Shown one piece after another: positions 8,854 to 55,438 of a stretch of 64,000 nt of DNA. How positions within the stretch are numbered: the stretch's first letter is position 1; each line of letters opens with the position of its first letter. The stretch is from an uncultured Chlamydiae bacterium. GTDB taxonomy: Bacteria > Chlamydiota > Chlamydiia > Chlamydiales > JAJFMB01. Made by a program: the position numbers and the translations under genes. Location: positions 1,696,001 to 1,760,000 of the forward strand of contig CAVOJR010000001.1 of NCBI GenBank assembly GCA_963696295.1, written 5' to 3'. Below the pieces are notes generated by a model. It did no database searches. It saw only the letters and a program-made list of their open reading frames with translations, and was not told where the DNA came from.

Positions 8854-10038
8854 ATGTTGAAAAACTTGTTTATTTTCCTGCTCCTTTTTTCGTCCAGTGG
8901 CATTTCGGGCTGCGACCGGCGAAATCCCGAATTTTGCTCGTCGTCCATAGCTAGCGCTATGAACTCCTCACAATCTTCGGGATTTCTTGGTCTCGCTCCG
9001 AAATACCAAGTTGACGAAAATAAACCAATAGCCCTTCTTTCGGCTACTGGTTTAATTTCGTCCAGTGGCATTTCGGGCTGCGACCGGCGAAATCCCGAAT
9101 TTTGCTCGTCGTCCATAGCTAGCGCTATGAACTCCTCACAATCTTCGGGATTTCTTGGTCTCGCTCCGAAATACCAAGTTGACGAAAATAAACCAATAGC
9201 CCTTCTTTCCGAAGAGGAGCTTCCTTTCGCCGCTCCTTACACGTTTATGAAATTGGCTGATTTTGTTTATAACGAAGAGGAGCCTTTTGAACCGGCTCAA
9301 GTTTTTGAAGGCGCGGTGGTGTATGCCGTTTCTACGCAACTATCCTCATTCTTTACCATGATCCACACCCATATCAAAAACCGTTACATTCTCATCACGC
9401 ATGGCGCCGATCCATTCGTTCCCGGCAGGTATGTCAAATATTTAAACAGCTGCAAAATCATCGCGTGGCTTGGCCGAAATCCTTCAGTAAAACCAAATAA
9501 GAAGTTTCATCCGATTCCCATAGGGATTAATGCCAGGACTCAAGGCGCGGCTGAATGGGCTAAGCCTATTTATGACCGGCTCTTAGAATGCGACTGTGAA
9601 AAAGAACACCTTCTTTATCTGAACTTTGATCTGAAAACCAACAAATCGGCAAGAGGAGAGGTGTACGATTTATTCCATTCCAAACCCTACTGCTTTTGCT
9701 CTGAGAAGAAGCCGATGGAAGAGTATCTGCTCGATCTTAAAAAATCCCACTTTGTCCTCTCTCCAACCGGCAACGGGCTGGACTGTTTCAGGACCTGGGA
9801 AGCGATGCTGATGGGTTCCATACCCATTGTTCAAACCTCAAAGTTAGATCCCTTATTGGAAGATCTTCCCGTATTGATCGTTGATGACTGGAAAATCATC
9901 AATCAAAAATATCTCAAAGCCAAAAAAATAGAATTTGAAAAAAAGAGATATTCCCTTGAGAAGATTTATATTTCTTACTGGAAAGAATATATCCATCGTC
10001 TATTGAAAGAGGCCGGAATCGAAAATGATAAAAGCTGA
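8854..10038 (+). CDS. Exostosin/GT47-like glycosyltransferase-related protein, with two palindromic element copies inserted at the signal peptide
   Basis: C-terminal FVLSPTGNGLDCFRTWEAMLMGSIPIV motif; paralogous to 26069..27109; duplicated 51-aa segment near the N-terminus. Confidence 0.7.
   Translation: MLKNLFIFLLLFSSSGISGCDRRNPEFCSSSIASAMNSSQSSGFLGLAPKYQVDENKPIALLSATGLISSSGISGCDRRNPEFCSSSIASAMNSSQSSGFLGLAPKYQVDENKPIALLSEEELPFAAPYTFMKLADFVYNEEEPFEPAQVFEGAVVYAVSTQLSSFFTMIHTHIKNRYILITHGADPFVPGRYVKYLNSCKIIAWLGRNPSVKPNKKFHPIPIGINARTQGAAEWAKPIYDRLLECDCEKEHLLYLNFDLKTNKSARGEVYDLFHSKPYCFCSEKKPMEEYLLDLKKSHFVLSPTGNGLDCFRTWEAMLMGSIPIVQTSKLDPLLEDLPVLIVDDWKIINQKYLKAKKIEFEKKRYSLEKIYISYWKEYIHRLLKEAGIENDKS
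8888..9209. repeat. Two identical 154-bp direct repeats (8888-9041 and 9056-9209, period 168), each a long imperfect palindrome
   Basis: Identity read directly. The complete hairpin is 9044-9199, with arms CTACTGGTTTAATTTCGTC/GACGAAAATAAACCAATAG, GAAATCCCGAA/TTCGGGATTTC and CATAGC/GCTATG. Confidence 0.95.
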
Positions 10039-12619
10039 TTTGCCTGAAGAGATTCAGGTTTATTGTCACTTTTCCGAAGAGCAAAAGAGGGAAGATTTGT
10101 ACGCGGTTTTGCTCAACGACAACTGGCTGGCCGCTAACGGGGATTTGGCGGGAAAGCTGATCAGGAAATTGCAGGAAACGAAACTCCCCTATGAAAAAGC
10201 CCTTGAGATCAGCCATAAAGCCGCTCAGATTCTGGGCGCTGAACCCCCTGCGCAGCTTGTTATAAAAAATGGGCAAAAGGTAAAAGAGTTTCCTGTCAAT
10301 AAACTGGTTTTGGCTTCACTTGGGGTTGCTTTTCTCTGCTTTGAGGTAGAAGAGGGGGTCTTTCAGGCGATGACTGATGGGGTTATTTCGAATATTAGCT
10401 TACACGGTCTGCGCGACCTTATTTTATTGGCGAAGTTAGCGGAAATGCAAGGTCTTGCCAATAAGGCCGCAAACTATTTTCAGGAGCAAACGGGGCTTAG
10501 CCTCCATGTTAAAGACTTAGACTCAACCGAAGTGACGATCAATAAGGCTTCTTCTCAGGTTTATTTGGAGCGCCTGCCTGCCGCGTGGGACATTCATCTC
10601 GCTCCCAAGTACAACTCAGAAGGCGAGGCGTTTATTACTATTGCCGAGCGGTACAAAGAGAGAGTTAAGTCGGCGAATTTCGGCGGGATAGGGGACGCTT
10701 GTATTCAAAGATTGATACAAGCCTGTGCGAATCTTTGCGAGTTAACAATCTGTTCCCCCGGACTGGAGGAGCTTGATGTGAGCGGCCTTCAAATCCTTTC
10801 CATTCTCAAACTCAACGGGTGTTCCGGGCTGAAAAAGCTGACCTTAGGAACTAATCTTACCCATCTCGAACTTAAGGACTGTTATGCACATGGATGCCTC
10901 GATTTCAGCTCTTTGACAAACCTTGTTTACCTGGATCTTAGCGGCTGCTGGCAGTATAAAACAATCGGCTTGCGCGCGCTTGTGAATCTGACCACGCTGA
11001 AATTGAGATGTTGCTGGGGGCTGATAGAACTGCCCGATTTGAATTATCTAACCAGGCTTACCGCGCTTGATCTCAGCCGGTGCACCAATCTGGGAGAAAT
11101 TAAGATCCGGAAGCTGATTCATCTGATCCACTTAAACCTTAGCGGATGCAAGAAGGCAACCGATTTCTCCGATGTGAGCTTTCTGACAAAACTTGTCAGC
11201 CTCGATATGAGCCAATGCTGGGATATGAAGGTTTTGCCTGATTTAAGCGCCCTTATACACCTTGTCACCCTCAATCTCAACGGGTGCTGGCATGTGCAGA
11301 AAGTCTGTCTCTCGCTCAAAAAGCTCACCACGCTGACTCTCAATATGTGCGACGCTGTCGATGAGGTGGCTTTAAGCAGCTCGAATATCGACCGTCTTGA
11401 TCTGAGCAGCTGTAAAAAAGTAAAAAAACTCCGTTTAGATAATGAGAGCCTGACCTCTCTGCAGGTTGCCAGGTGCACTGCCTTTGATGAGCTTTATTTA
11501 AATGATCTCAAAAACATCGAGAACGTCGAAATTTTGGAAGAAACGAGCGAAGAGGAAAAGGGGAGGTTTCTCGCAAAGTTTCCCCCGAGGGTGGGCAGGA
11601 TGGCCACCCTGAAGGAAATCGATAAAGTTTTGAAGAGAGAGGATTTTGACAAAGCCGCGGCTCTATTTTTTTCATTGAAATCCAGGGGGGATTTTGCGGA
11701 GATTTTACGGTTAGCCGTCGAGAAATTTTACAACCTCGCCGCCTGGCTTGTAGAGAGGCATCCCGAAGAGTTAGAGCAGGCCTTGGAATTAATCCCCGGT
11801 GTGAGGTCATTGAGTATTTTGCCGTTTTTAGCTCCGGATGAGGTGAAATCAACCCTCTTGGGCGTAAAAGAAGAAGAGCGGAAAAAATGGTTGCAGGAAC
11901 CGCTTACCTATACACAATTTTCAGGGAGTGTTCTTGAGGTGTTAAAAGAGGTCAAGAGAGGCAATCTCGACGGGACAGGAGAAATCAATCCGGTCATTCA
12001 GGGAGAGTTTTTAAAAATTGTTTCATTTAAGGCCTTTGCCGCTCTCGCTTTAGATCCGAGCTTAAAAGAGATCGCCTTTGCTTATCTTCCCCTTCTCAAT
12101 GAGAGCCGCCTTGCCGCGGCCGTGCCCGCCCTTACGGAAGCGCGTCTGATGGAATTCCTGCGCCTTCAGCCGTTCCAGTGCCACGCCAGTTATCTCGCTT
12201 ATGCGACACATGCCCAGAAGGAGATCTACCTGGAAGCGATGCCGGAATTTCTTAAGACCCCTTCTTTGGGATTAAGATCCTGGGTTTTTCAAACCAGGCT
12301 GAGCCTCGGCCTTATAAGATCAAAATTGCTGCGCCACAGTCCGCCCCTTTTGCAAAAAATAAATGAAAAAATGGAGGCTTATAACCTCACGCTTAATCAA
12401 ATCGAAGCGGGTTTAAGCCAAGAGGGTCAAGAAGAGGAGTTACTGGATGTGATCACGAAGGAGCCGCTGACCGATCCCTATCAGGACCGGCAGGGCCGCA
12501 TATTAAATAAATCGACCTGGGAGATGCTGATAGCCAACCGGCAAAGAAATCCCTTTGACCGCTCCTGGCTGACGCTAGCGCACATTTCGCCCGCATTAAA
12601 AGAGGAAGGGAAGAAATAG
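10025..12619 (+). CDS. Leucine-rich repeat protein with C-terminal U-box-like domain (candidate host-targeted E3 ligase)
   Basis: About 10 LxxLxLxxC repeats; C-terminal LLDVITKEPLTDPY...GRILNKSTW...NPFDR; N-terminal KEFPVNKLVLAS resembles a BTB motif. Confidence 0.75.
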   Translation: MIKADLPEEIQVYCHFSEEQKREDLYAVLLNDNWLAANGDLAGKLIRKLQETKLPYEKALEISHKAAQILGAEPPAQLVIKNGQKVKEFPVNKLVLASLGVAFLCFEVEEGVFQAMTDGVISNISLHGLRDLILLAKLAEMQGLANKAANYFQEQTGLSLHVKDLDSTEVTINKASSQVYLERLPAAWDIHLAPKYNSEGEAFITIAERYKERVKSANFGGIGDACIQRLIQACANLCELTICSPGLEELDVSGLQILSILKLNGCSGLKKLTLGTNLTHLELKDCYAHGCLDFSSLTNLVYLDLSGCWQYKTIGLRALVNLTTLKLRCCWGLIELPDLNYLTRLTALDLSRCTNLGEIKIRKLIHLIHLNLSGCKKATDFSDVSFLTKLVSLDMSQCWDMKVLPDLSALIHLVTLNLNGCWHVQKVCLSLKKLTTLTLNMCDAVDEVALSSSNIDRLDLSSCKKVKKLRLDNESLTSLQVARCTAFDELYLNDLKNIENVEILEETSEEEKGRFLAKFPPRVGRMATLKEIDKVLKREDFDKAAALFFSLKSRGDFAEILRLAVEKFYNLAAWLVERHPEELEQALELIPGVRSLSILPFLAPDEVKSTLLGVKEEERKKWLQEPLTYTQFSGSVLEVLKEVKRGNLDGTGEINPVIQGEFLKIVSFKAFAALALDPSLKEIAFAYLPLLNESRLAAAVPALTEARLMEFLRLQPFQCHASYLAYATHAQKEIYLEAMPEFLKTPSLGLRSWVFQTRLSLGLIRSKLLRHSPPLLQKINEKMEAYNLTLNQIEAGLSQEGQEEELLDVITKEPLTDPYQDRQGRILNKSTWEMLIANRQRNPFDRSWLTLAHISPALKEEGKK

Positions 12620-12685
12620 AATTCTATTGATTTTACCAATTAAAATTTGTTAATTTAATCCCTGATCAATTACAAGCGAAAACGT

Positions 12686-15742: not shown

Positions 15743-15751
15743 GGGTCTATT

Positions 15752-16507
15752 ATGTGGATGGGCAATTACGAGCTGATCAACCTCTTCGGAATGGTTTTTC
15801 AATCGATTTTCATCGAAAATTTCCTTTTAGCCAATTTTCTGGGGATGTGCACCTTTTTGGCCTGTTCGACCAAATTGAAAACAGCAAACGGCCTAGGAGT
15901 TGCCGTGGTCTTTGTATTAACCTGCGCCGGTATTCTCAACTGGCTGGTGTTTAAATTCATAACGGGGGAGAACGCCCTCTCCTGGCTGAGTTATTTTGGA
16001 TTGGACACGACGGGAATCAATCTCAATTTCCTCCAGTTTTTGCTCTTCATCGCCGTGATAGCGGCCTTTACCCAAATGATAGAAATTGTGATCGAGCGGA
16101 TTGCCCCCTCTCTATACCTCACGCTCGGCCTTTATTTGCCGCTGATCGCCGTTAACTGCGCTATATTGGGCGCCTGCCTCTTTGCCGTGACGCGGGACTA
16201 CCCCTTCTGGCCCAATTTGTTCTATGTCTTTGGCTCAGGCATGGGGTGGTGGCTTGCGATTGCTTTGATGGCGGCTATCCGGGAAAAGCTGGCCGTATCC
16301 AACGTAGTGCCCCCTTTGCGCGGAATGGGGATCACCTTTATCATGGCCGGCTTGATGGCGATGGCTTTTCAAGGCTTTGTGGGCATCCGGCTGGCTGATC
16401 CGACAGGAGGCGTACCCGTCGACGAACATCCGATTCCGGAGCCGCTAGCTTATACCCAAACAACCTCAAAATTTGGGATTTCGGCGTTGCCGAAAACAAA
16501 ATTTTGA
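15752..16507 (+). CDS. nqrE: Na+-NQR subunit E; the last ~18 codons derive from a palindromic element
   Basis: FLGMCTFLACS, LPLIAVNCAILG and AIREKL motifs. Confidence 0.96.
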   Translation: MWMGNYELINLFGMVFQSIFIENFLLANFLGMCTFLACSTKLKTANGLGVAVVFVLTCAGILNWLVFKFITGENALSWLSYFGLDTTGINLNFLQFLLFIAVIAAFTQMIEIVIERIAPSLYLTLGLYLPLIAVNCAILGACLFAVTRDYPFWPNLFYVFGSGMGWWLAIALMAAIREKLAVSNVVPPLRGMGITFIMAGLMAMAFQGFVGIRLADPTGGVPVDEHPIPEPLAYTQTTSKFGISALPKTKF

Positions 16508-16514
16508 GGTTGTT
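16451..16514. repeat. Short palindromic element related to the hemD element; supplies the nqrE stop codon
   Basis: Perfect 16-bp inverted repeat AACAACCTCAAAATTT (16459-16474)/AAATTTTGAGGTTGTT (16499-16514); inner TTTCGGC/GCCGAAA; starts TATACCCAAACAAC, as at 54879. Confidence 0.88.
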
Positions 16515-16515
16515 C

Positions 16516-17301: not shown

Positions 17302-17573
17302 GATTTTTTGATACTGTGATAGGGGTTTTTCTTGTAGTTGCTTGAGGCTTTACTTGCGCTGTGAAAATTTGTTCGATGGAATGGGTTTCCGTTGGGTCAA
17401 TATGCATAGCGTCTTCAACGGGTGAAATGGGCACCTCGTTTATTCTTTGATTATATTTATCGTAAGGATTGTGTCCTTTAATTTCTACCATAACTAACTC
17501 CATGTATATTTATATAATAATACAAGCCAGCTATATAAACAACTATTTTGAAATCTGTAAGGATATGATTAAT

Positions 17574-19097: not shown

Positions 19098-19106
19098 ATT
19101 TACTCC

Positions 19107-19461: not shown

Positions 19462-22400
19462 TTAATTATAGTTTGATTTGGATAATTTATCCAGATAAAC
19501 GTAGATCACCGGGGTGAGCAGGAGGGTGACCGCCTGGGAGAAGAGCATGCCGCCGATGATCACCATGCCTAAGGGGCGCAGCGAATCGGCGCCGGCCCCG
19601 AGGCCAAAGGCGATCGGGATGGCGCCGAAGATGGCAGCCATGGTGGTCATCATAATGGGTCTGAAGCGGGCGAGGCAGGCGTTGGTAATGGCCTTCTCAG
19701 GGCTATTGGCCACTTTCATAAATTCATCAGAGATTGGGCCGGTTGCGGCTTTGCCGGCCGAATCCAGTGATGAATTTATGAAAATGGCCGAGCTCTCTTT
19801 GCTTTCCAGGGCGAAATCCACCAGCATAATTCCGTTTTTTTTCACAATGCCGATCAGAAGGATCAGACCTAAAAAAGCGTAGAGCGAAAAGGGGTGGCCG
19901 GTCAGATAGAGCGTCAGCAGTCCCCCCAAGATGGCCGGCGGCAGGGTGGAGAGGATGGTCAGGGGGTGGATAAAGCTTTCATAAAGAATGCCCAGCACCA
20001 GATAGATCGCCAGGATGGAGAGGATGAGGAGGAATCCGGTGCTCCTGATCGTTTCCTGAAAGGTTTTGGCTGCCCCGAGAAACTGTCCTTTCACATGGGG
20101 CGAGAGATGCTCTTGCGCGAGATTTTCCAGTGTGCTCATCGCCTCGCTTAAGGGAATGCCGGGCGCTACATTGAAGTTTATGGTCACGGAGGGGAGCTGG
20201 GCAATGTGGTTGACGCTGGAGGGACCTAAGTTTTCTGCCCATTTAGCGACGGCGTGCAAAGGGGTGAGTTTGTCGGTGTGGCCCGCGCGCAGGAAGATGG
20301 AGTTGAGCGATTCCGGTTTTCCCTGGTATTTGCGCTGCAGTTCCAGGATGACATCGTATTGGTCGATCGGCGTTTCGATGCGCGAGACGCGGTTTCCCGA
20401 ATAGGCGAGCAGCAGGGATTGCTCGATGCTTTCGGCCGTGATGCCAAGCGCTGCGGCCTGATCGCGGAGGATCTGAATATTCAATTGGGGCATTTTCATC
20501 TCTAAATCGCTCGTAACACCCTGGAAAACAGGCAGCGGCTGGATAATCGAGAGCAATTTTTCGGCGGAGGCGTAGAGTTCGGCGGTGTCCAGGCTTTGCA
20601 GGGTATATTGAAAGGCCCCTTTAGTCTGTGTGCCAACGGATAAATCGATGAGGGGGATATTTTTGAAAAAGGTATTGACGCCAGGGATATCGGCCATTTT
20701 CTGGTAGAGCTTTTGGATCAGCTCTTGGCTCGATATCCTTTCTTTCTTAGGTTTTAAGCGGATAAAATTCACTCCCTCCCTCGTTTGGGGGTAGGCGGCG
20801 ATAGAGACGAAGCTTTTGATATTGGGATCTTTTTGCAGCACCTGTATCACTTCATCCTGATAATGGGCCATCAAATCGGACGAAGTGCCTTGCGCCGCCT
20901 GGTTGTAGGCGATAATAAAACCTCCATCTTCATCGGGAATAAAATCTTTAGGCAGGATTTTAAAGAAAAAGAGGCTTAAGAGAATGCTCAATAATCCGAA
21001 AGCAAGGGTCGTTTTGCGATATTTTAAAACTGCTTCCAGGCAAGGTTTATATAAGGCGATCAGGCCGCCCGATTCATTTGCAGGTTTGCGCGGCCGCAGG
21101 AATCTTGAGCAGAGCATCGGCGTGAGCGTCAGAGAGAGGAAGCCCGATATCAAAGTGAGGATCGCGAGGGTGACGGCGAACTCCTGAAATATTTTTCCAA
21201 GCAGCCCCTGCATAAATAGAAGGGGAATAAAAACGGCGGCCAGGGAAAGGGTCATCGAGAGGATGGTGAAACAGATCTGCCTGGAGCCGTTCAGGGAGGC
21301 GTTCCAGGGGGTTTCTCCCTGTTCTACCCTTTTGACGATATTCTCCAGGACGACGATCGCATCGTCGACGATAAAGCCGATGGCCAGGGTCAGAGCTAAA
21401 AGCGACAGACTGTCCAGACTATAGTTTAACAGGTACATGGCGATAAAGGTCCCTACAATGGAGAGGGGCAGTACGAGGGCCGGGATGATCGTATCGCGCA
21501 CGTTGCCAAGATAGAAGAAAATCACCAGGACCACCAAAAGCAGAGCTAAACCCAAAGTCAGCTGCACGTCGAAGACCGATTCCTCAATCGAAAAGGATTG
21601 GTCGAATAGGCTTTCCACTCTGATGGCAGCGGGCAGCGGAGCGGTCAATTCCGGCAGGATTTTTTTGATCGCCCGGGCTACGGCTACGGTGTTGGCGTTA
21701 GGCTGCCTTTGAATGGCGAGCACGACGGCCGGTTCCTTTCTTTCCGCATTGACATACTTTAACGACATCCGGTCGTCTTTGAGGCCGTCGATGGCTTGGC
21801 CAACGTCGCGGATGCGCACCGGAGCTCCCTCTTTGTAGGCGATGATGAGAGGCTGAAACATTTCGGCGTTCGTGAGGCGCCCTTTGGTGGCGAGCGTGGC
21901 CGAGCGGTTTACCCCGTCAAGGCGGCCTGTGGGGAGGTTCGGGTTTCCCTCTTGCAGTGCTGAGGCGATCTCCTGCAAGGTGATGCCGAGAACGGCCAGG
22001 CGGTTTGGATCGACTTGGACGCGCATCGCATAAGGGGAGCCATAGGTGATCACCTTCGCCACCCCTTCCACCATCGAGAGGCGCTGACCGATATAGGTGT
22101 TGGCGTAGGTGTAAAGCTCTGACAGCGGGAGCGTGTCCGATGAGAGGGCTAAATACATGATGGGCGCCATGCCCGGGTTTACTTTTCTGAAAGTGGGGGT
22201 GTTGGGGAGGTCGGGAGGCAGGTTGGAAAGGGCCCGGCTGATGGCCGCTTCGACGTCCAAAGCAGCCGAATCGATATCTTTATCGACCGAGAAGTGCAAA
22301 ACGATGCTGGTTTGCCCTAAGGTATTGCTCGAGGCGATATTGGTGATGCCGGAAATAGTCATGAACTCTTTTTCCAGCGGCGTGGCGACAGAGTTGGCCA

Positions 22401-22575
22401 TCGTTTCGGGGCTGGCTCCCGGAAAGGCCGCTTTGACGCTGATGACGGGAAAATTGATGTCGGGCAGGTTGCTGACAGGCAGCTGAAAATAGCAAAGCCC
22501 CCCTAAAAAAAGGATGGCGAGCATCAAGAGGGTCGTCATCACCGGGCGTTGGATAAAGGGAGCGGACAGATTCAT
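19462..22575 (-). CDS. RND efflux permease (MdtB/MdtC-like, AcrB family) with a palindromic in-frame insert
   Basis: FIQRPVMTTLL, GFIVDDAIVVLENI, GIVKKNGIMLVDFA and RFRPIMMTT motifs. Confidence 0.95.
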   Translation of the reverse strand: MNLSAPFIQRPVMTTLLMLAILFLGGLCYFQLPVSNLPDINFPVISVKAAFPGASPETMANSVATPLEKEFMTISGITNIASSNTLGQTSIVLHFSVDKDIDSAALDVEAAISRALSNLPPDLPNTPTFRKVNPGMAPIMYLALSSDTLPLSELYTYANTYIGQRLSMVEGVAKVITYGSPYAMRVQVDPNRLAVLGITLQEIASALQEGNPNLPTGRLDGVNRSATLATKGRLTNAEMFQPLIIAYKEGAPVRIRDVGQAIDGLKDDRMSLKYVNAERKEPAVVLAIQRQPNANTVAVARAIKKILPELTAPLPAAIRVESLFDQSFSIEESVFDVQLTLGLALLLVVLVIFFYLGNVRDTIIPALVLPLSIVGTFIAMYLLNYSLDSLSLLALTLAIGFIVDDAIVVLENIVKRVEQGETPWNASLNGSRQICFTILSMTLSLAAVFIPLLFMQGLLGKIFQEFAVTLAILTLISGFLSLTLTPMLCSRFLRPRKPANESGGLIALYKPCLEAVLKYRKTTLAFGLLSILLSLFFFKILPKDFIPDEDGGFIIAYNQAAQGTSSDLMAHYQDEVIQVLQKDPNIKSFVSIAAYPQTREGVNFIRLKPKKERISSQELIQKLYQKMADIPGVNTFFKNIPLIDLSVGTQTKGAFQYTLQSLDTAELYASAEKLLSIIQPLPVFQGVTSDLEMKMPQLNIQILRDQAAALGITAESIEQSLLLAYSGNRVSRIETPIDQYDVILELQRKYQGKPESLNSIFLRAGHTDKLTPLHAVAKWAENLGPSSVNHIAQLPSVTINFNVAPGIPLSEAMSTLENLAQEHLSPHVKGQFLGAAKTFQETIRSTGFLLILSILAIYLVLGILYESFIHPLTILSTLPPAILGGLLTLYLTGHPFSLYAFLGLILLIGIVKKNGIMLVDFALESKESSAIFINSSLDSAGKAATGPISDEFMKVANSPEKAITNACLARFRPIMMTTMAAIFGAIPIAFGLGAGADSLRPLGMVIIGGMLFSQAVTLLLTPVIYVYLDKLSKSNYN
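19703..19789. repeat. Palindromic element inserted in frame in the RND permease
   Basis: 22-bp arms GGCCACTTTCATAAATTCATCA (19708-19729)/TGATGAATTTATGAAAATGGCC (19768-19789) with 1 mismatch; inner GATTGGGCCGG/CCGGCCGAATC. Confidence 0.92.
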
Positions 22576-26068: not shown

Positions 26069-27109
26069 ATGTTGTCGATGAAAAAAATTCTATTTTTATT
26101 ATTACTCCTAAATCAGGTTCATGGGGAATGGGAAAAGACCCATTTTCTTTGGCATTTTGCTATTGCCGGTTCCTGCGATGTCATGCCCGAGAGGAATCCC
26201 TTTGATTATTTCAATTACCAGAGCATCATCCTTGTCAGAAGGAAGCCGGTTTTCCTTCCCGAACGCTATTTTGGGATCAAGAAAGGAGATACGGTGTGGT
26301 TGCAGAGCCGTTTTTTGGCCCAATTTTGCAGCCAGGTTCTTCCTAAGATCGCTGATCCCTTTGTGCTTGTCATGAGCGACGGAGATGAAAACTTTCCTTC
26401 GGATATCCACCTGTCGGAAGCTGAACTGGAACAGCTTTTAGATGATGACAGAATCATCGCGGTATTTTCCCAGAATTGCGACTATCAGGGAACGAGCCCT
26501 AAAGTTTATCAGATGCCGATAGGCATCGATTTTCACACGATTGCTTATATAGGAACGGGGCGATGGGGCGTCAAAAAGAGCTCCCCTGGCGAGCAGGAGA
26601 GATTTTTAAAACATCTGATACGAAAATTGCCGCCTACCCCCGCGCGTAAAAAAAGAGCTTTTGTAGACTTTCAGCATCGCGATACCATGAATAACCGCTA
26701 CAAAGAGGGTAAGTATCCCGAAAACAGGCAGCAAATATTTCAGCAGCTGCTAAGAGGCGGGTTGATCGATTATTCCCCTAAGCAGATGAACAGAAATGAG
26801 CTTTGGAAAACTAAAGGACAATACGCCTTCTCAATAAGCCCTCATGGGGGAGGCCTCGATTGCCATCGAACCTGGGAAGATTTGGCTCTGGGATGCATCG
26901 TCATTGTCAAAACCTCTCCATTAGATCCCATGTATGAAGGGCTTCCCGTAGTGATTGTCGATGACTGGGCTGAAGTGACTGCCGCTAACATGGATATTTG
27001 GCTGGAACAATTTGGGGATGCGCTGAGTAATCCCTCATATCGCGAGAGAATCACAACCGCCTATTGGTGGAGTAAAATCCAGGCCGTCGCAGAGCCTTAT
27101 AAAGGATGA
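26069..27109 (+). CDS. Exostosin/GT47-like glycosyltransferase-related protein with signal peptide
   Basis: ISPHGGGLDCHRTWEDLALGCIVIV...LPVVIVDDW, shared with 8854..10038. Confidence 0.7.
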   Translation: MLSMKKILFLLLLLNQVHGEWEKTHFLWHFAIAGSCDVMPERNPFDYFNYQSIILVRRKPVFLPERYFGIKKGDTVWLQSRFLAQFCSQVLPKIADPFVLVMSDGDENFPSDIHLSEAELEQLLDDDRIIAVFSQNCDYQGTSPKVYQMPIGIDFHTIAYIGTGRWGVKKSSPGEQERFLKHLIRKLPPTPARKKRAFVDFQHRDTMNNRYKEGKYPENRQQIFQQLLRGGLIDYSPKQMNRNELWKTKGQYAFSISPHGGGLDCHRTWEDLALGCIVIVKTSPLDPMYEGLPVVIVDDWAEVTAANMDIWLEQFGDALSNPSYRERITTAYWWSKIQAVAEPYKG

Positions 27110-28113
27110 AGATGAAAAACATACTCCTCATATTGAGTTTATGCTTGTGCTTTCTGAGTGAGGCTTTTGCTGAAAGAGGGATTGTGGTTGCTGTCAATGA
27201 CTTTTATGCAAAAAAGTATTTTATTGCCAGCCTTGAGCATTTGAGAAATCATATTAAATGCGATTTGCCGATAGAAATTTGGCATTCAGGCGATGAATTA
27301 TCTGAAGAAATAAAGCAAATATTGAAGGAATATCCCAATGTGTCATTTTGCGATATAGCCATCGAACTTAAGGTTGACAAACACCTTTATAGAGGCTGGC
27401 ATATTAAGCCTTGGATTATCTGGCTGTCGCGATTTGAAGAAGTTCTCTTGATGGATGCCGATGTTTTTTTTCTTGAAAATCCTGAGAGTTTATTTCATCA
27501 CCCGGGATATATCGGTACGGGCGCTTATTTCTTTTGCGATTATAAAATATTGATGCCCACTGCCAATTACCCCGTGGATAAGTATCTAGACCGAAGAAAG
27601 TTTATTTCCTCCCTTATTCCAAATCCAAGCAACTGTGTTCCAAATGACATGAAAGAGATGTGGTCTGATGAAATTCCGACTCTCAAAAACCCTTTTGTGG
27701 CAGATCTGGGGGAGTCGGGTTGTATCGCCATCAATAAGAATATCCATGAGTTAAGTCTTAAAGAAACGATTCAACTGAATGAAAACCGCCAAGTTACCTA
27801 TAAGTATGTGCATGGAGATAAAGAGACCTTTTGGATGGGGTGTGAAATAGCCGGCTTGCCCTATCATATGAATGATCAGAGAGCGTATGAACTTATTTCT
27901 GGAATTTTCAAACTGCATATCACTCAATTTGTCGGAAATAAACTCTTCTATATTCAGAAACAACCCTATCGATTATTCCTTAGTTTTTCCAGAATTATCA
28001 ATAATGAAGGGTGTAACAGACTTGTAACCGCTGAGGAAATTACTAAGATTAAACAATGTTTAGAATCTATACAGAAAGTGAAAAATTCAGCCCTTAAAGG
28101 AAACAATCGCTAA
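27106..28113 (+). CDS. GT71 (MNN1/MNN2-like) alpha-mannosyltransferase-like protein with signal peptide
   Basis: RGIVV, LPIEIW, K.....SRFEEVLLMDAD (DxD), ESG.I.INK and GDKETFW motifs. Confidence 0.8.
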   Translation: MKMKNILLILSLCLCFLSEAFAERGIVVAVNDFYAKKYFIASLEHLRNHIKCDLPIEIWHSGDELSEEIKQILKEYPNVSFCDIAIELKVDKHLYRGWHIKPWIIWLSRFEEVLLMDADVFFLENPESLFHHPGYIGTGAYFFCDYKILMPTANYPVDKYLDRRKFISSLIPNPSNCVPNDMKEMWSDEIPTLKNPFVADLGESGCIAINKNIHELSLKETIQLNENRQVTYKYVHGDKETFWMGCEIAGLPYHMNDQRAYELISGIFKLHITQFVGNKLFYIQKQPYRLFLSFSRIINNEGCNRLVTAEEITKIKQCLESIQKVKNSALKGNNR

Positions 28114-28495
28114 TTGATCTGCTGAGGAAACAAAGCGTCCTTAAAGGAAACTAAGCTGAGTATCTGGCAGAGGAATTTCGTGAGCGTGAAAAAAGGAAAC
28201 AATCGCTAATTGATCTGCTGAGGAAACAAAGCGTCCTTAAAGGAAACTAAGCTGAGTATCTGGCAGAGGAATTTCGTGAGCGTGAAAAAAGGGGACAATC
28301 GCTAATTGATCTGCTGAGGAAACAAAGCGTCCTTAAAGGAAACTAAGCTGAGTATCTGGCAGAGGAATTTCGTGAGCGTGAAAAAAGGAAACAATCGCTA
28401 ATTGATCTGCTGAGGAAACAAAGCGTCCTTAAAGGAAACTAAGCTGAGTATCTGGCAGAGGAATTTCGTGAGCGTGAAAAAAGGAGACAATCGCT
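28096..28495. repeat. Tandem array of 96-bp units (4 full plus a partial unit) overlapping both flanking stop codons
   Basis: AATCGC recurs at 28105, 28201, 28297, 28393 and 28489. Units differ only at GG[AA/GG/AG]AC. Confidence 0.97.
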
Positions 28496-28911
28496 TTTTG
28501 GGATAATTGATCTGCCATCTCATTTTCCCGGTGGCCGGAATGCCCTTTTATCCAGGCCCACTCCACCTGATGCCGGCTGACCAATTGGTCCAGCCCCTTC
28601 CAGAGATCGATATTTTTGACCAAAGACTTATCCTTGGTTCTCCATTTATTTCGTTTCCACCCCTCTAGCCATTGCGTTATCCCGTCTTTGAGGTAGGTGG
28701 AATCGGTCGTGATGCGTACTTTACAGGGGTGTTTGAGGATTTTGAGGCCTTCGATCGCCGCCGTCATTTCCATCCGGTTATTCGTCGTGTAGGCTTCATG
28801 GCCGGAAAGGGTTTTTTCCCGGTTGCCGGAGCGGAGCACAACCCCCCAGCCTCCCGGTCCCGGATTTCCCCAGCACCCTCCATCTGTAAACATTTCGACG
28901 AGAGTATTCAT
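28429..28911 (-). CDS. rnhA: Ribonuclease HI
   Basis: TDGGCWGNPGPGGWG, TTNNRME, TDSTY, KNIDLW and WIKGHSGHRENEMAD motifs. Confidence 0.95.
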   Translation of the reverse strand: MNTLVEMFTDGGCWGNPGPGGWGVVLRSGNREKTLSGHEAYTTNNRMEMTAAIEGLKILKHPCKVRITTDSTYLKDGITQWLEGWKRNKWRTKDKSLVKNIDLWKGLDQLVSRHQVEWAWIKGHSGHRENEMADQLSQKAIVSFFHAHEIPLPDTQLSFL

Positions 28912-40844: not shown

Positions 40845-40940
40845 ATGGACAGTAAAGATCGACTATTCGAGATAGCTGACAGGCAACAAGGTTTTTTTAT
40901 CTCCTGTTATAAAAACGGCAGGGGAACCACCTTTGTATGA
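40845..40940 (+). pseudogene. Truncated type IV TA AbiEi-like antitoxin N-terminus
   Basis: Translates MDSKDRLFEIADRQQGFFIS, resembling the AbiEi N-terminal 'L.EIA..QQGYFT' motif. It then runs into the gcvT 3'-end copy and stops after 31 codons. Confidence 0.55.
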
Positions 40941-41138
40941 TACCCAATTTATACCATTAGGCCCAATATTAGTTGGTAACTTTTCTTTCTGGCTTTTCCT
41001 TGTCGTGTCGCATTTCACTCAAAAGGATATATCCTGGAAAAGGTAGGAAAATCAATAGTATGCCATGAAACAACTTGTCTTTACGATTATACACCCTTGA
41101 TATACAATCATGGGCTTAGCATATTTGTTAATGAAACC

Positions 41139-43028
41139 ATGACACGCAAAGCAATCATTACTCCGCTAGACATTCTTACTAGGCTTTCTTGGGGTGAAAC
41201 AGATGATCTTGAATTCAAGTCAGCTAAAGGAGGTATGCCAGAAAACCTGTGGGAAACCTATAGTGCTATGGCAAATACCCTTGGCGGCGTTATTCTGTTA
41301 GGTGTTAAAGATGATGGCACAGTAATTGGAATTGCCGATATCAACAAAACCAAGAAGCAAATTTGTGATCTTCTTAACAACCGTCAAAAAGTGAATGTTA
41401 ATCTTATTCACGAAGGGGATATCCAAGTGGTTCCACACACTGATGGAAACATGCTTGCCATCCGTATTCGTCGCGCTGATCGTCGTGAAAGACCTATTTA
41501 TGTCGGGCAAAACCCACTTACTGGTACATATCGCCGCAATCATGAAGGTGATTACCGCTGTACAGAACAAGAAGTTAGACGCATGCTAGCTGATAGTGCT
41601 GAAGAACCTGCTGATAGTCGCATACTTGAAAATTTCACCTTAAACGACCTTGACTTATCAAGCCTTCATCAATATCGTAATCGCTTAGCCTCTCGCCAGC
41701 CTGCACATCCTTGGCTAGATGAAAACGATTTGGGTTTTTTAAAAAAGCTAGGTGGGTGGCGCTCTTGTCGTAAAAACAATATGGAGGGTCTAACAGTAGC
41801 TGGGCTTCTCATGTTCGGAAGAGATGAAACAATTCGAGAGGAAATACCACAATACCAGGTTGATTTCCGCGAGAGGCTATCTCTCGATCCAGAGATCCGC
41901 TGGACAGACCGTCTAACATTAGATGGAACTTGGCCGGGCAACCTCTATCAGTTTTATCATAGAGTCATTCAAAAGCTATCTTCAGACCTTAAACTTCCGT
42001 TTGAATTGGATAGCGATATGGTTAGAAAAGGAGAATCTGTAGTTCATGTTGCCATTAGAGAAGCCTTAATCAATGCGCTCATTCATGCGGATTACCAAGG
42101 ACAGGGCGGCATTGTCATAGAGAAATATCCTGATCGCTTCGAATTCTCAAATCCTGGATCTCTCCTCATTTCGTTCGATCAAATTCTTCAAGGTGGTATT
42201 AGCGAATGCAGAAATAAATCTTTGCAGCAAATATTTACCCTCATTGGAGCTGCGGAGAGAGCTGGATCCGGTATTGACAAAATTCGAACTGGCTGGGAAT
42301 CACAGCACTGGCGTTTACCAAGCGTCAGGGAACGCACACGCCCTGATCGAGTGATTTGGGTTCTTCCCATGGTAAGTCTGATTCCAGAAGAATCACTAGA
42401 TCGTCTCAAAAAACAATTTAGTTCTAAATTTTCTAAATTAGATCAATTCGAAGTCCAGGCTCTCGTAACTGCTGACATCGAAAAATATGTTAATAATGCC
42501 AGAATGCGCCAGATTACCGGTCTCCATCCTGCCGAAGTGACTAGCCTGCTACAAGGCTTGGTAAGCCGCGGTTTCCTTTGTCAAAATGGCCAATGCCGCT
42601 GGACTAATTATCAGCTCCCTCGGAGAATAGATTCCCTACATAACGAGGGTTACTCCCTACATAACGCGAGTCACTCCCTACATAACGCGAGTCACTCCCT
42701 ACATAACGCGAGTCACTCCCTACATAACGCGAGTCACTCCCTACATAACGATGATTACTCCCAAGAAACTGAACAATGGACAAATCTCGAAAATCTTGCA
42801 TTGCCTGCTATAAAAAGTAGACGACTACCTCCCCAAGAGATGGAAAAATTAATATTAAGACTCTGTAAAGATCAATGGCTAACAAGGCATCAGATTTGCA
42901 TACTCCTAAATCGAAATCCCGATGGGATTCTTTCAAGGTTTCTAACACCAATGGTTGAACATAAGCTCCTTATGCTGCGTTACCCAGACAAACCTAACCG
43001 AACCGATCAAGCCTATAGATCAGCGTAA
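41139..43028 (+). CDS. AlbA_2 (Schlafen-like) + HATPase_c_4 + wHTH protein ('RecG-like/ATP-binding regulator' class)
   Basis: ETDDLEFKSA, SAMANTLGGVILLGVKDDG, AIREALINALIHADY, NPG, CRN and ERAGSGI motifs. The start may extend to 41097. Confidence 0.88.
   Translation: MTRKAIITPLDILTRLSWGETDDLEFKSAKGGMPENLWETYSAMANTLGGVILLGVKDDGTVIGIADINKTKKQICDLLNNRQKVNVNLIHEGDIQVVPHTDGNMLAIRIRRADRRERPIYVGQNPLTGTYRRNHEGDYRCTEQEVRRMLADSAEEPADSRILENFTLNDLDLSSLHQYRNRLASRQPAHPWLDENDLGFLKKLGGWRSCRKNNMEGLTVAGLLMFGRDETIREEIPQYQVDFRERLSLDPEIRWTDRLTLDGTWPGNLYQFYHRVIQKLSSDLKLPFELDSDMVRKGESVVHVAIREALINALIHADYQGQGGIVIEKYPDRFEFSNPGSLLISFDQILQGGISECRNKSLQQIFTLIGAAERAGSGIDKIRTGWESQHWRLPSVRERTRPDRVIWVLPMVSLIPEESLDRLKKQFSSKFSKLDQFEVQALVTADIEKYVNNARMRQITGLHPAEVTSLLQGLVSRGFLCQNGQCRWTNYQLPRRIDSLHNEGYSLHNASHSLHNASHSLHNASHSLHNASHSLHNDDYSQETEQWTNLENLALPAIKSRRLPPQEMEKLILRLCKDQWLTRHQICILLNRNPDGILSRFLTPMVEHKLLMLRYPDKPNRTDQAYRSA
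42633..42762 (+). repeat. 21-bp coding tandem repeat, about 6 copies (SLHNASH)
   Basis: TCCCTACATAACG at 42633, 42654, 42675, 42696, 42717 and 42738. Confidence 0.97.
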
Positions 43029-43139
43029 AAATTTAAATCCATATTTGGTTCAATTTATCCAATTTTATATATAAAATGTTTAATATTTTGTGTTTTAAAT
43101 TAATGGATTAGTCTGACCTGATAGGTGAATTTTTATCTC

Positions 43140-44165
43140 TCATAAAAACGGCAGGGGAACCACCTTTGCAGGTATTTGTTTGTTGCGGATCAGCACGGTG
43201 ACTTCAGAGTTCAATTTTAAAGGCTTATCAGCCAGGATGATCGCAATCCCCTTCTCAAGGGTGGGAGAAAAGGTTCCGGATGTGACCGTGCCTATTTTTG
43301 CGCCCTGATCATAAACTTCATGGTCGGCCCTCGCGATCGCTTCCAGGACAATGCCCCATTCGCTGCGCGGATTTTTAAGGGCGAGCAGGGCATCTTTACC
43401 AAGGAAGGATTTGTCGAATTTGACGGTCCAGGCGGCGACGCTTTCGGTCGGGGCGATCGAATCGCTGAGTTCATGCCCATAAAGAGCGTACCCCTTTTCC
43501 AGGCGGAGAGCATCCCGTGCGCCAAGTCCGGCCGGAGTGATGCCGAGGCCGATGAAGGCGTCCCAAAGCTCCACGATTTTTTCCTGCGGGGCGTAAATTT
43601 CACACCCCTTCTCTCCCGTGTAACCGGTGCCGGCGACGATCAGATTGTCCAGGGATAAAAAGCGCATCGGTTTTAAGCCGCCCACTTCCGGAATCACTTT
43701 TTCGACTAAGGGCAGGGCGGCTGGCCCTTGAATGGCTATAATGCCTTCCCCCTCGAAACAGTCTTCGATAACGACATCGAAAGGGGCGCTCTCTTGTAAC
43801 AGATGGGAGTAATCTTTTTGCCGGTTTGAGGCGTTGCAGATGACAAAAAAGTGCTCCTGGTCGATTTTATAGACGATCAGATCATCGATTGAAGTGCCGT
43901 CGGCGCGGCACCAGACGGTGTAGGTGGCCGACCCATTTTTTTTGCCGGCGATCTGATTGGTCGAGAGGTAGTCGAGAAACTTTTCACTCTCTTGGCCGCT
44001 GATTTTAATCCGGCCCATGTGGGAAACGTCGAATATTCCGGCCTTATGTCTCACGTTCCGGCTCTCCTGCAGGATGCCGGTATACTGCAAGGGCATCTCC
44101 CAGCCGGCAAAATCGACTATTTTTGCTCCTAAGAGAACATGCCGGTCAAAGAGGGCCGTTCTCAC
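43140..44165 (-). CDS. gcvT: Glycine cleavage system aminomethyltransferase T
   Basis: FAGWEMP, FDVSHMG, TGYTGE.G.E and GLGARDALRLE motifs. The GTG start overlaps the upstream TGA. Confidence 0.96.
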   Translation of the reverse strand: MRTALFDRHVLLGAKIVDFAGWEMPLQYTGILQESRNVRHKAGIFDVSHMGRIKISGQESEKFLDYLSTNQIAGKKNGSATYTVWCRADGTSIDDLIVYKIDQEHFFVICNASNRQKDYSHLLQESAPFDVVIEDCFEGEGIIAIQGPAALPLVEKVIPEVGGLKPMRFLSLDNLIVAGTGYTGEKGCEIYAPQEKIVELWDAFIGLGITPAGLGARDALRLEKGYALYGHELSDSIAPTESVAAWTVKFDKSFLGKDALLALKNPRSEWGIVLEAIARADHEVYDQGAKIGTVTSGTFSPTLEKGIAIILADKPLKLNSEVTVLIRNKQIPAKVVPLPFL

Positions 44166-47094: not shown

Positions 47095-47186
47095 TATCTC
47101 TCCCTTTAAGCAAAGTAGCTATGCTAACAAAAAATATCCTTTAGGACAAAGGCTTTTCGTAAAAGTTCTTGCGACATTGATAATTT

Positions 47187-48897: not shown

Positions 48898-48935
48898 GGG
48901 GTCTATTGTAAAGGAAGGAAGGAAAATAGGAAAGA

Positions 48936-49571: not shown

Positions 49572-49668
49572 GATGGAAATTTTACCTGATTGCCAAATTC
49601 CTGTGGACGGAAACTTTTAAAAAGTTTAATCTCTGTTAATTTCAAAAAACCATTCGTCGAGTAATTGT

Positions 49669-51965: not shown

Positions 51966-51996
51966 ATAATTTAGATTATCCGCTACACTATGTATC

Positions 51997-54078: not shown

Positions 54079-54716
54079 ACATCATTGTCGGCGCGAGAGC
54101 CTCGCCGCTCTCCAAAGCGCAAGTTTGCGAAGTCCTGTCAGAGCTAAAGCGCTACCATCCTTTGGTGGAATTTACTCCCCTTTTCACGGAAACGGTGGGC
54201 GATAAAGAACAAAAGACCTCTTTGCGCAACTTAGAAAAAACCGATTTTTTTACACGGGAAGTGGATCAGCTTCTGCTGCAGAAAAAGTGCCGCATCGCCA
54301 TCCATTCGGCGAAAGACTTGCCCGAACCCCTGCCAAATGGGATAGCCCTGATCGCTTTGACTAAAGGGGTGGATTCCTCGGATGCACTTGTTTTAAGGGA
54401 AGGGGAAACCCTGCAAAAAAACGCCCGCATCGCCACATCATCGCTCCGCCGGGAAGCTATGGTGAGAGAGCTTTGCCAGGATCTCGCCTTCGTCGATATT
54501 CGGGGGACGATCGAAAAGCGGCTGCAAAGTCTGGAAAAAAGGGAAGTAGATGGCGTAGTGATTGCCGAGGCGGCTTTGATCCGCTTGGGGCTGACGCACC
54601 TCAACCGGTTAAGGCTCCCCGGCGATACCGCGGAATTTCAGGGGCGTCTGGCTGTCACCGCCCGCGCGGGCGACCTGGAAATGCAGGAGTTATTCAACCC
54701 TCTCAATGCCCTATGA
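54075..54716 (+). CDS. hemC: Hydroxymethylbilane synthase, short form
   Basis: GARASPLSKAQ, AIHSAKDLP, TSSLRR and DIRGTIEKRL motifs. Confidence 0.9.
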   Translation: MNIIVGARASPLSKAQVCEVLSELKRYHPLVEFTPLFTETVGDKEQKTSLRNLEKTDFFTREVDQLLLQKKCRIAIHSAKDLPEPLPNGIALIALTKGVDSSDALVLREGETLQKNARIATSSLRREAMVRELCQDLAFVDIRGTIEKRLQSLEKREVDGVVIAEAALIRLGLTHLNRLRLPGDTAEFQGRLAVTARAGDLEMQELFNPLNAL

Positions 54717-55438
54717 GAACCCTGTATCTCGGCCTCCGCCCCAAAGAGGGGATGATTCACTTTCCTTTGATTCAAATCGTTCCAAGGCCCCTGCCGGATG
54801 AGGTTTTTGACAATTTTCCCTTCTTTACTCATCTCTTATTCACCAGCCAAAGCGCGGTGGATATTTGTTTGTCTGACCTATACCCAAACAACTTGAAGAG
54901 TTGGGAATTGGGCAAGGAGGTTCCTTCAAATTTTTGTCCGGAACGAGTGACCAGCACGAGTGAGGACGAAAAATTGAAGGTTAAACCGACGAAGCCCAAA
55001 ACTAACTCTTCAAGTTGTCTCGCCGGCAAGCTGTGTCTGGCCGTGGGAGAGGCTACAAAAAGAAGGATTGAGGAACAGGGCTACAGCGTCCTGGCCGCCC
55101 CCAAAGAGGAGACGGCTGAGGGGCTGATATCCGCGCTCGATCAGCTGGAGCTGAAAGACGCCTTTTTCTTTTGGCCCCACTCCGCTCTGTCGCGTCCGCT
55201 CTTGACCGACTATTTCGCTGAGCGCAAAGTGCGTTTTTGCGCCTGCGCCGTCTATGACACGAAATTCCAGCTGCCCGGTCCATTGCCTCCCTTGGAGGAG
55301 ATCGATGAAATTATCTTTACCAGCCCCTCAACCGTGCATGCTTTTCTCCATTATTTTGGTAAATTGCCAAAGGGGAAAAAATTGACCCCTATCGGTCCTG
55401 TTACCAAAAAAACTTTGATGCAAAGCCAAGAAATCTGA
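54713..55438 (+). CDS. hemD: Uroporphyrinogen-III synthase with a ~47-aa palindromic-element insert
   Basis: [35 protein letters not shown] and IGPVT motifs. The ATG overlaps the hemC TGA. Confidence 0.88.
54879..55019. repeat. Palindromic element inserted in frame in hemD
   Basis: Perfect 15-bp arms ACAACTTGAAGAGTT (54888-54902)/AACTCTTCAAGTTGT (55004-55018); inner stems TTGGGC/GCCCAA, CCTTCAA/TTGAAGG and GTCC/GGAC. Confidence 0.93.

Follow-up and report, generated by a model that had tools for sequence, protein, structure and literature searches.

Genes of this member of the Chlamydiota carry copies of three MITE families (A, B and C), which are likely moved in trans by transposases without a recognisable gene here and are predicted to be translated as an extra peptide of the host protein. 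The window, meaning the whole stretch of 64,000 nucleotides that was analysed, contains five such segments, all of which could be assigned to a family: two B copies in a GT-like gene, a short and a long form of A (A2 and A1) in nqrE and hemD, respectively, and a short derivative of C in an RND permease gene. A sequence-only reading had described five hairpin-forming segments of at least three sequence types, lying within open frames and each coinciding with a peptide foreign to its protein family. The open reading frames and alignments bear this out, with the places right and the bounds slightly refined for the B and RND copies. Folded as single-stranded DNA, the segments gave z = -5.07 (8890-9035), -8.32 (16451-16514), -7.63 (19695-19800) and -8.82 (54879-55019), and none of 200 shuffles per segment folded as well in any case.

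The elements combine the characteristics of MITEs: small size, no internal transposase gene, terminal inverted repeats, target duplications (A and B) and many dispersed copies. Across families the units measure 64-173 bp, too small for an open reading frame of transposase size. Family A units are 160-164 bp long, with a 26-bp inverted repeat (TATACCCAAACAACTTGAAGAGTTGG, beginning TATACCCAAACAAC) at both ends and a TA duplication, and family B units comprise 160 bp, with inverted repeats GGCTAYTGGTTTAATTTCGTCC and GGACGAAAATAAACCAATAGCC, plus an 8-bp target duplication (for example AATTTTGG, ATAATGCT or CTTCTTTC). Family C has few copies, which share a central core with B and differ in their arms (GGCCACTTTCATAAATTCATCA arms); a target duplication was looked for at these copies and none was recognised. 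The 3.43-Mb source genome holds 88 A/B loci (nhmmer, E ≤ 1e-3), of which 41 reach 100 bp or more, and about eight family C sites, in line with the earlier expectation of many copies genome-wide, and the A terminus TATACCCAAACAAC has 83 matches at up to one mismatch. Real transposition with TA duplication is shown by two nested insertions, one at C1:2884433, where an A1 copy sits in the TA of a second A1 copy whose model positions 118-119 occur on both sides, and one at C1:487835, where the A1 copy sits in the TA of a B copy. Copies decay via deletions and truncated ends. The arms of the A-type elements covary, with 96.3% of cells paired and double changes in 16 of 29 pairs, a level reached in none of 500 shuffles.

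The RXYLT1_C/GT-like gene (8854-10038, + strand; open reading frame and Pfam) carries two B copies in tandem on the same strand. Copy 1 (8886..9033; nhmmer model positions 13-160, 168.6 bits) is truncated at its 5' end, where about 12-14 nt are missing from the start of the left inverted repeat, and lies in frame just behind the signal-peptide core. It is followed by the 8-bp target duplication CTTCTTTC (9034..9041), the full-length 160-bp copy 2 (9042..9201; GGCTACTGGTTTAATTTCGTCC...AAACCAATAGCC; model positions 1-160, 184.6 bits) and a second CTTCTTTC octamer on its 3' side (9202..9209). Copy 2 is also in frame and, together with the duplication, adds 56 codons. Positions 8888-9041 and 9056-9209 are 100% identical over 154 nt, giving a period of 168 bp. 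In alignments, the B inserts are missing from 10 of 10 GT-like orthologues and from two paralogues, and the native signal peptide is retained upstream of the inserts.

The NqrE (Rnf-Nqr) gene (15752-16507, +; open reading frame and Pfam) ends within an A2 copy at 16451..16514 (+; nhmmer 64.2 bits and alignment of the NqrE tail), whose right inverted repeat breaks off after GTTGTT. This copy encodes the final 18 NqrE residues and the TGA stop (16505-16507), replacing the native tail. Similarly, an 82-bp palindrome of family C with 22-nt arms (95% complementary) lies at 19708..19789 (-) in the gene for an RND/AcrB-type permease (ACR_tran; 19462-22575, -; open reading frame and Pfam), where it is in frame and adds about 26 residues, including ..SSAIFINSSLDSAGKAATGPISDEFMKVA.., with ..ESKESSAIFINSS.. 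as the predicted host-element junction peptide; the insert is missing from 10 of 10 aligned orthologues and one paralogue. The HemD (HEM4) gene (54473-55438, +; open reading frame and Pfam), which probably starts at the ATG at 54713, contains a 141-bp A1 copy (54879..55019, +; nhmmer 148.8 bits) from which 23 nt in the interior and 9 nt at the end of the right inverted repeat are missing. It adds 47 codons in frame, and none of the 11 aligned orthologues has it. Contigs of sequencing runs X3 and X4 contain the left arm of the element with other flanks, and no empty-site allele was seen among the short contigs from sequencing runs. The shared terminus proposed for hemD and nqrE, TATACCCAAACAAC, proved to be that of family A. 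A second one, CCAATAGCCCT, proposed for the GT-like and RND copies, does occur in both genes, but was rejected as a terminus and is probably coincidental, because in the RND gene it runs over the host codons for N-S-P(-E-K), residues that have aligned counterparts in the orthologues. An RNase III gene is also present in the window.

The units themselves are compatible with residence in coding sequence. Unit plus duplication amounts to 162 bp in family A and 168 bp in family B, both whole numbers of codons, and three of the six frames of A1 are free of stops (shuffle P = 0.0015), as are two frames in each of B and C. All five intragenic A1 copies would be read in one frame (...NSSSC), which is hydrophilic (GRAVY -0.94), and they keep a length divisible by three even where internal stretches of 18 and 23 nt have been lost. 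In a set of 41 A-type copies of full length, which come from about 15 assemblies and are not independent because they share descent, length minus two is divisible by three in 37, and the mean number of open frames is 1.8 versus 0.29 in shuffles, counts likewise non-independent through shared descent. Hairpin repeat families rich in stops (self-BLAST groups 3, 4, 8 and 13, with ~0 open frames) have no intragenic copies.

Flank-based frame tests were used to class the copies, and a crude gene finder, which missed hemD and nqrC, was set aside for this purpose. Outside the window, five further in-frame hosts were identified in the source genome: a carB-like gene, an NRPS thioesterase, an RHS-repeat protein and two unnamed open reading frames of 561 and 621 codons. 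The carB-like insert lies between CPSase_L_D2 and D3, where 10 matches from nine genomes have a 3-aa gap versus 54 aa in the source genome; its open reading frame of 938 codons may be decaying, those of relatives remaining open for 980-1155. The NRPS copy lies within an open reading frame of 5223 codons and breaks into the thioesterase domain at profile position ~94 of 226. In another genome (G009), a 164-bp A1-type copy occupies a Glyphos_transf gene in the same frame as the A1 copies of the source genome. The predicted extra length per host protein ranges from 18 to 112 amino acids. Genic loci nevertheless account for only ~12 of ~96, although a rough estimate puts the coding fraction at 0.88, which indicates depletion from genes; for the large A1 copies the genic share is 5 of 18. 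Thirteen loci are open into a long downstream open reading frame with fewer than 50 codons upstream. Many or most of these are probably insertions into 5' leaders and not coding, so that being 'in frame' has little meaning there.

These observations suggest the following course of events. An insertion in the right phase and orientation would add 54-56 residues and leave the frame unbroken, selection would then purge most genic insertions, and the survivors would be those whose hydrophilic peptide falls into a loop, a domain boundary, a C-terminal tail or the region behind a signal peptide; placement in loops is suggested by alignments and Pfam boundaries. In nqrE, the variable tail would have been replaced because the element arrived in a frame bearing a stop. 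Host genes in decay would provide another explanation, in which the elements are disruptive, a stop has yet to be acquired and no working fusion protein results. The shortened carB-like frame and the interrupted thioesterase domain fit such decay. However, both flanks of the inserts retain a strong coding signal and conserved residues, the operon contexts of hemD, nqrE and the RND gene are intact, and neutral decay would not preserve the single frame and 3n lengths of the five intragenic A1 copies, making this explanation unlikely. It is equally improbable that the elements have been co-opted, their hairpins or peptides having a putative host role as mRNA processing sites, terminators, 5' promoters or lipobox/linker modules. 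The 13 loci directly 5' of long open reading frames would agree with such a role, as would the B-encoded ..SSGISGC.. placed directly behind the GT-like signal-peptide core, the nqrE stop codon supplied by an element and the RNase III encoded within the window, but the host genes are unrelated and have no common theme, copies decay by deletion and end truncation, and orthologues manage without the inserts. That the peptides are old lineage-specific protein segments with secondary DNA similarity, or the hairpins assembly artefacts, has no supporting point that we found and is extremely improbable: the elements are multi-copy, the same DNA of 141-164 bp recurring with differing flanks at dozens of unrelated places, most of them between genes, the nearest orthologues of the same family are without the inserts, and the right hemD junction is spanned without differences by a 151-nt contig of sequencing run X1, possibly the source sample itself.

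The enzyme that moves the elements was sought in the window, the source genome and related genomes. As the sequence-only reading had stated, the window is free of transposases, with none found among its 57 open reading frames compared with Pfam (seven at E ≤ 1e-3 and 50 at E ≤ 1e-8). In the source genome, DDE_3/IS630 (PF13358) has no match and no transposase enclosed by a pair of A or B termini was found. Nor was a related autonomous insertion sequence with the same ends found among 88 genome-contig stretches. As neither the window nor the genome yielded a matching transposase, mobilisation in trans, as proposed earlier, is the natural inference. Comparison of 20 long repeated open reading frames of the source genome with Pfam identified IS3-like, IS5-like, PDDEXK_2 and TnpB genes, and the multi-copy insertion sequences have other ends; the IS5-like unit, for example, was ruled out as a parent by its GGACTGTGTTGCAAAACT ends and 7-bp duplication. 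IS630 was likewise rejected, as seven loci in three A-rich relatives (G345, G340 and G013) are without the A terminus at up to three mismatches and have inverted repeats of their own that differ. Inverted A termini also bound a 5.8-kb segment (C1:2424682-2430468), whose genes are of the TPR, PI-PLC-X and LRR kinds and do not include a transposase, and a 2.03-kb unit flanked by terminal inverted repeats in another genome (G403:C73), considered as an autonomous relative, is an IS110-family element inserted in a MITE arm. An HUH or RAYT transposase flanked by the same hairpins had been suggested as a target for the search, and the elements might then be REP/REPIN-like hairpins moved as single-stranded DNA by a Y1, RAYT-type enzyme. 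The sole Y1_Tnp seen adjoins TnpB in the source genome with an A1 fragment ~100 bp away, and the covariation of the A-type arms would also be in keeping with such movement. However, that gene belongs to an IS605-type unit (present twice) without flanking element hairpins, mirrored end changes are also expected of inverted repeats bound by a transposase, and the TA or 8-bp duplications and long terminal inverted repeats (22-26 bp) are marks of DDE-type transposition, for which reason a mechanism of the HUH/RAYT type is not favoured and is considered very unlikely.

Among known systems, the behaviour of the elements most resembles that of the Rickettsia palindromic elements (RPE), described by Ogata et al. 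(2000, 2002; as summarised in the review PMC10969869) as ~150-bp palindromic repeats of several families in an obligate intracellular host, a sizeable share of which, nearly half, lie in frame in unrelated metabolic genes with a conserved peptide per family. Both are palindromic units in frame in unrelated genes with a family-specific predicted peptide and, on that account of RPE, no transposase is known for either. In contrast to RPE, the present elements occur in Chlamydiota, the likeness being drawn from behaviour, and have clear terminal inverted repeats with TA or 8-bp duplications, making them formally MITEs; their genic share (~12 of 96 loci; 5 of 18 large A1 copies) is also lower than the nearly half given for RPE (PMC10969869). 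ERIC, BOX and QMITE1 are open-frame MITEs that are at times fused in frame to host genes (PMC10969869), as sporadic cases, whereas here several subfamilies have net lengths of 3n and frames free of stops, and one frame is used in every genic A1 copy. REP sequences associated with RAYT are hairpins of 20-40 nt without duplication, unlike the present units of 64-173 bp with duplications. IS630/Tc1-mariner-derived MITEs, such as RUP of Streptococcus pneumoniae, have a TA duplication, measure near 100-170 bp and are moved by a transposase in trans. Family A shares their TA duplication, terminal inverted repeats and size range, but the source genome has no IS630-type transposase and the IS630 ends in the three A-rich relatives differ. 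Correia elements (CREE) of Neisseria, which have a TA duplication and 26-bp repeats and are palindromic only at their ends, not over the whole unit, have to our knowledge no identified parent transposase. They resemble the present elements as MITEs of about 100-200 bp with long inverted repeats starting TATA, often just 5' of genes, but are mostly intergenic or disruptive and are not known to be suited to residence in frame. PMC10969869 reviews how large and how numerous they are, the promoters they carry and their cleavage by RNase III.

Going by the same review (PMC10969869), the presence of palindromic mobile DNA in frame within housekeeping genes has so far been regarded mainly as a peculiarity of Rickettsia. 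Similar behaviour is now found in a second, unrelated obligate intracellular lineage, with a readable transposon anatomy and an order-wide distribution. Whether selection only filters such elements or they are adapted to being translatable, and which enzyme moves them, can now be tested. The elements also bear on the annotation of chlamydial genomes and MAGs, in which they lengthen predicted proteins, make false N-terminal extensions and replace stop codons. No account of such elements in Chlamydiae was found in the literature that was searched, Rfam gave no matches in the window, and an element copy with its flanks had no match among plasmids (blastn).

The A-type elements may, more tentatively, belong to an order-wide superfamily in environmental chlamydiae, comprising TA-duplicating hairpin transposons shaped for life inside genes, as hinted at by 3n net lengths (162 and 171 bp) in separate subfamilies, several stop-free frames and one hydrophilic frame conserved across genera. 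If so, they would represent an independent counterpart, bearing terminal inverted repeats, of the 'protein-coding palindromes' of Rickettsia, and gene-dense intracellular genomes would be a habitat in which translatable selfish DNA survives. The sequence-only reading had regarded the elements as the lineage's own, but 51 of the order's 401 genomes that were compared have the A terminus, and carriers of this terminus are labelled Chlamydiae, Chlamydiia or Rhabdochlamydia. The source genome also encodes the chlamydial histone-like protein Hc2 (PF07382).

The genome under study comprises a 3.30-Mb chromosome (contig C1, of which the window covers 1696001-1760000) and a 135-kb second contig, with a GC content of 47%, and encodes the chlamydial histone-like protein Hc2. 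The five segments that a sequence-only reading had described as hairpin-forming and as lying within open frames were found at their places in the window, and both descriptions held. As single-stranded DNA, the segments fold more stably than shuffled sequences (z = -5.07, -8.32, -7.63 and -8.82, with 0/200 shuffles as stable in each case), and their host ORFs match the Pfam families RXYLT1_C (the GT-like gene, 8854-10038), Rnf-Nqr (NqrE, 15752-16507), ACR_tran (an RND permease, 19462-22575, minus strand) and HEM4 (HemD, 54473-55438, probable start 54713). None of the 57 ORFs scanned in the window contains a transposase domain, in agreement with the same reading.

The claim that these segments encode extra peptides atypical of the protein families was borne out by orthologous loci in 40 genomes that belong to the same order, through gaps in HemD, the RND permease and the GT-like protein. 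All 11 HemD orthologues, the same-family one included, show a gap of ~45 residues. The RND permease carries ~26 extra residues that are missing in 10/10 orthologues and in one paralogue of the same genome. They are flanked by the conserved motifs ..KKNGIM.VDFA.. and ..RFRPI.MTT..; in terms of AcrB topology, we take this site to be the cytoplasmic loop joining TM10 to TM11. In ten orthologues and two paralogues of the GT-like protein, a hydrophobic signal sequence leads directly into the catalytic domain, while the protein studied here keeps a similar start (MLKNLFIFLLL..) followed by 2 x 56 predicted element-encoded residues. As this native-like signal start precedes them, the elements lie inside the coding sequence and not in a leader. 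Homology of NqrE stops at ..EPLA, and the element supplies the predicted final 18 residues and the TGA stop; 11 orthologues have variable tails of similar length.

Comparison of the elements with the whole genome (BLAST and nhmmer), as the sequence-only reading had proposed, showed all five to be multi-copy and to represent three hairpin MITE families: A (hemD and nqrE copies), B (both GT-like gene copies) and C (RND copy). Families A and B occupy 88 loci (nhmmer, E<=1e-3), 41 of them at least 100 bp long, and family C only ~8 sites. The full unit of family A, TATACCCAAACAACTTGAAGAGTTGG ... CCAACTCTTCAAGTTGTTTGGGTATA, measures 164 bp counting one TA per side, with a mean pairwise identity of 95% among nine copies. 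This family takes three forms, A1 (hemD type), A2 (nqrE type, short, 64-72 bp) and A3 (164 bp), of which A2 and A3 have their outer 14 nt in common and diverge beyond. Deletions of 23 internal nt and of the final 9 nt at the right end have cut the hemD copy to 141 bp, equal to 47 codons. Family B has a 160-bp unit (GGCTAYTGGTTTAATTTCGTCC...GGACGAAAATAAACCAATAGCC), while family C has GGCCACTTTCATAAATTCATCA arms and, in its 168-bp full form (C1:750052-750219), a central core, TCGTCGTCCATAGCTA.CGCTATGGACTCCTCA, common to family B. Partial and nested A1 copies cluster at C1:2629574-2629849, where three ~45-bp terminal fragments stand in tandem beside one full copy, and at C1:2884245-2884640, where one copy lies within another. 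The genome also holds at least four more hairpin MITE-like families (for example, C1:113071-113246, 2328220-2328398, 378301-378465 and 1449280-1449450), each of ~165-175 bp, almost without stop-free frames and without intragenic copies; the likeness in unit length among unrelated families is striking.

The elements have transposed. Two nested insertions carry TA on both sides, identifying TA as the target of family A: at C1:2884433 one A1 copy lies in another, with the outer copy's TA (model positions 118-119) on each side, and at C1:487835 an A1 copy splits a B copy at ...GACGAAAA-TA-AACCAATAG..., again with TA on each side. Family B is flanked by 8-bp duplications (AATTTTGG at 3164024, ATAATGCT at 2231917 and CTTCTTTC in the GT-like gene), and element-duplication-element-duplication arrays occur at two loci, namely the GT-like gene (period 168 bp, identity 154/154 nt) and C1:393854-394147, where the octamer gtgattgc appears three times. 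No target duplication was recognisable for family C.

Several properties are signs that the elements are compatible with coding sequence. Unit and duplication together give whole codon numbers in A1 and A3 (160+2 = 162 bp) and in B (160+8 = 168 bp). In counts that are not independent, since copies share descent, A1 and A3 have 3/6 stop-free frames each (shuffle means 0.29, P=0.0015, and 0.21, respectively) and B and C two each; all five intragenic A1 copies share orientation and phase, with the target TA forming the second and third positions of a Leu or Ile codon; both genic C copies use one common frame (..FINSSLD...DEFMKVA); and hairpin families with ~0 stop-free frames (self-BLAST groups 3, 4, 8 and 13 of this genome) have no intragenic copies. 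These counts also fit a pure selective filter. The predicted peptide of intragenic A1 is the most hydrophilic among its three open frames (GRAVY -0.94). In one in-frame A1 copy (C1:1687592-1687755), the two termini carry mirrored changes (TATACCCGAAC... / ...GTTCGGGTATA; A>G / T>C), so that the arms stay complementary.

Further genic copies were identified by requiring at least 50 codons with a positive coding score on both flanks, hosts then being named by Pfam. In a carB-like ORF the element forms residues 340-394, immediately after CPSase_L_D2, at a site where ten matches from nine genomes have a 3-residue gap. Other hosts are a 5223-codon NRPS (element in the thioesterase domain), a 561-codon ORF, a 621-codon ORF (element after the signal peptide), an RHS-repeat protein (family C) and, as a weak case, a CoiA-like ORF. 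Genic copies account for ~12 of ~96 loci (5/18 large A1 copies) against a crudely estimated coding fraction of 0.88, indicating strong depletion from genes. At another 13 loci, including the first GT-like copy and the nqrE copy, the frame runs on into a long ORF downstream and extends over fewer than 50 codons upstream; those whose Pfam domains and start codons allowed comparison, such as the ones at KdsA-like, MFS and NfeD genes, look like leader insertions.

Of 401 genomes sampled across the order, 51 contain the exact 14-mer A terminus, which is multi-copy in genomes of several families; a reversed control pattern gave 0-1 matches per genome. The two other genomes of the same family as the studied one had none. 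In contigs representing one genome per species, a 26-letter degenerate terminus matched 88 stretches; nearly all carry the label Chlamydiae, Chlamydiia, Chlamydiales, Rhabdochlamydia or Parachlamydiales or come from MAGs, the exceptions being a few Verrucomicrobia, one Burkholderiales and one Acidobacteria. Among 41 full-length A-type copies from ~15 assemblies, most measure 164 or 173 bp, length minus 2 is divisible by 3 in 37, 25 have an open A1 frame, and open frames average 1.8 per copy versus 0.29 in shuffles. Genome G009 belongs to another family of the order and has a 164-bp copy inside a Glyphos_transf gene, in the same frame as A1. The B-encoded peptide was confined to the studied genome among 41 searched. 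In the 41-copy alignment, 97.4% of cells in the 25-bp terminal stem are paired and 16/29 pairs of the whole structure show changes on both sides, values reached by 0/500 shuffles; sliding the partner by 1-3 columns reduced pairing to 32-48%. Such covariation alone is no proof of hairpin function, because mirrored ends are also expected of transposase-binding repeats.

The search for a mobiliser gave no DDE_3 match in the genome and no transposase enclosed by A or B termini. Its repeated insertion sequences (IS3-like, IS5-like, PDDEXK_2, IS605-type and a 2.3-kb four-copy unit) all have ends that differ from A and B, and IS630 copies of three A-rich relatives lack the A terminus. The one 2-kb unit with perfect A termini, in another genome (G403:C73), was rejected as a parent: it is an IS110-family element (locus L218, G403:C73:400-3200, at 396-2425; DEDD_Tnp_IS110 and Transposase_20, 495 codons) that sits within the left inverted repeat of an A-type MITE, an arrangement suggesting that hairpin ends may themselves be a target for IS110-family recombinases. 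At C1:2424682-2430468, inverted A-type termini bound 5.8 kb with TPR, PI-PLC-X-like and LRR genes and no transposase, either a composite unit or a chance arrangement. The 2.3-kb repeat (C1:1915-4215, 1896128-1898422, 3015931-3018231 and 3053756-3056109; at least 99.5% identity) has a 503-codon ORF without a Pfam match, whose NCBIfam similarity to TnpB-type RNA-guided nucleases is weak and falls below the cut-off. An IS605-type unit (C1:3089769-3091554; TnpB of 373-380 codons and Y1_Tnp of 143 codons; two genome copies) has a truncated A1 copy at a distance of ~100 bp and adjoins the Hc2 gene.

The finding is real, and the interpretation of the elements in the sequence-only reading, as palindromic elements inserting in frame like those of Rickettsia (RPEs), is essentially right. 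The system is of a kind known from Rickettsia; this instance is new, comes from a new phylum for the kind and shows clear MITE anatomy. Full-text searches brought up no description of MITEs or RPE-like elements in Chlamydiae, as judged by titles and the starts of abstracts; a 2024 review, a passage of which presents RPEs as an extreme case of in-frame MITE insertion, contains 'chlamyd' 0 times (PMC10969869).

Other repeats also occur in the window. A tandem repeat with a 96-bp period (28000-28575; ~five units, inner copies 99% identical) spans the gap between a mannosyltransferase-like ORF (27106-28113) and an RNase H gene (28429-28911). Near the 3' end of a Schlafen AlbA_2/HATPase_c_4 ORF (41097-43028) is a 21-bp (7-codon) tandem repeat of six to eight copies (42612-42779). 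This gene, with an FMN-dependent dehydrogenase gene on one side and gcvT on the other, is flanked by 32-nt direct repeats (40904-40935 and 43137-43168, 94% identical), which could mark a small inserted cassette. Finally, two 51-bp tandem units (59453-59554, 88% identical), each with a short palindrome (ATTTTGCCC.TTTGAC..GTCAAAC.GGCAAAAT), occupy the spacer ahead of an HTH_17/PTS_EIIA_2 gene.
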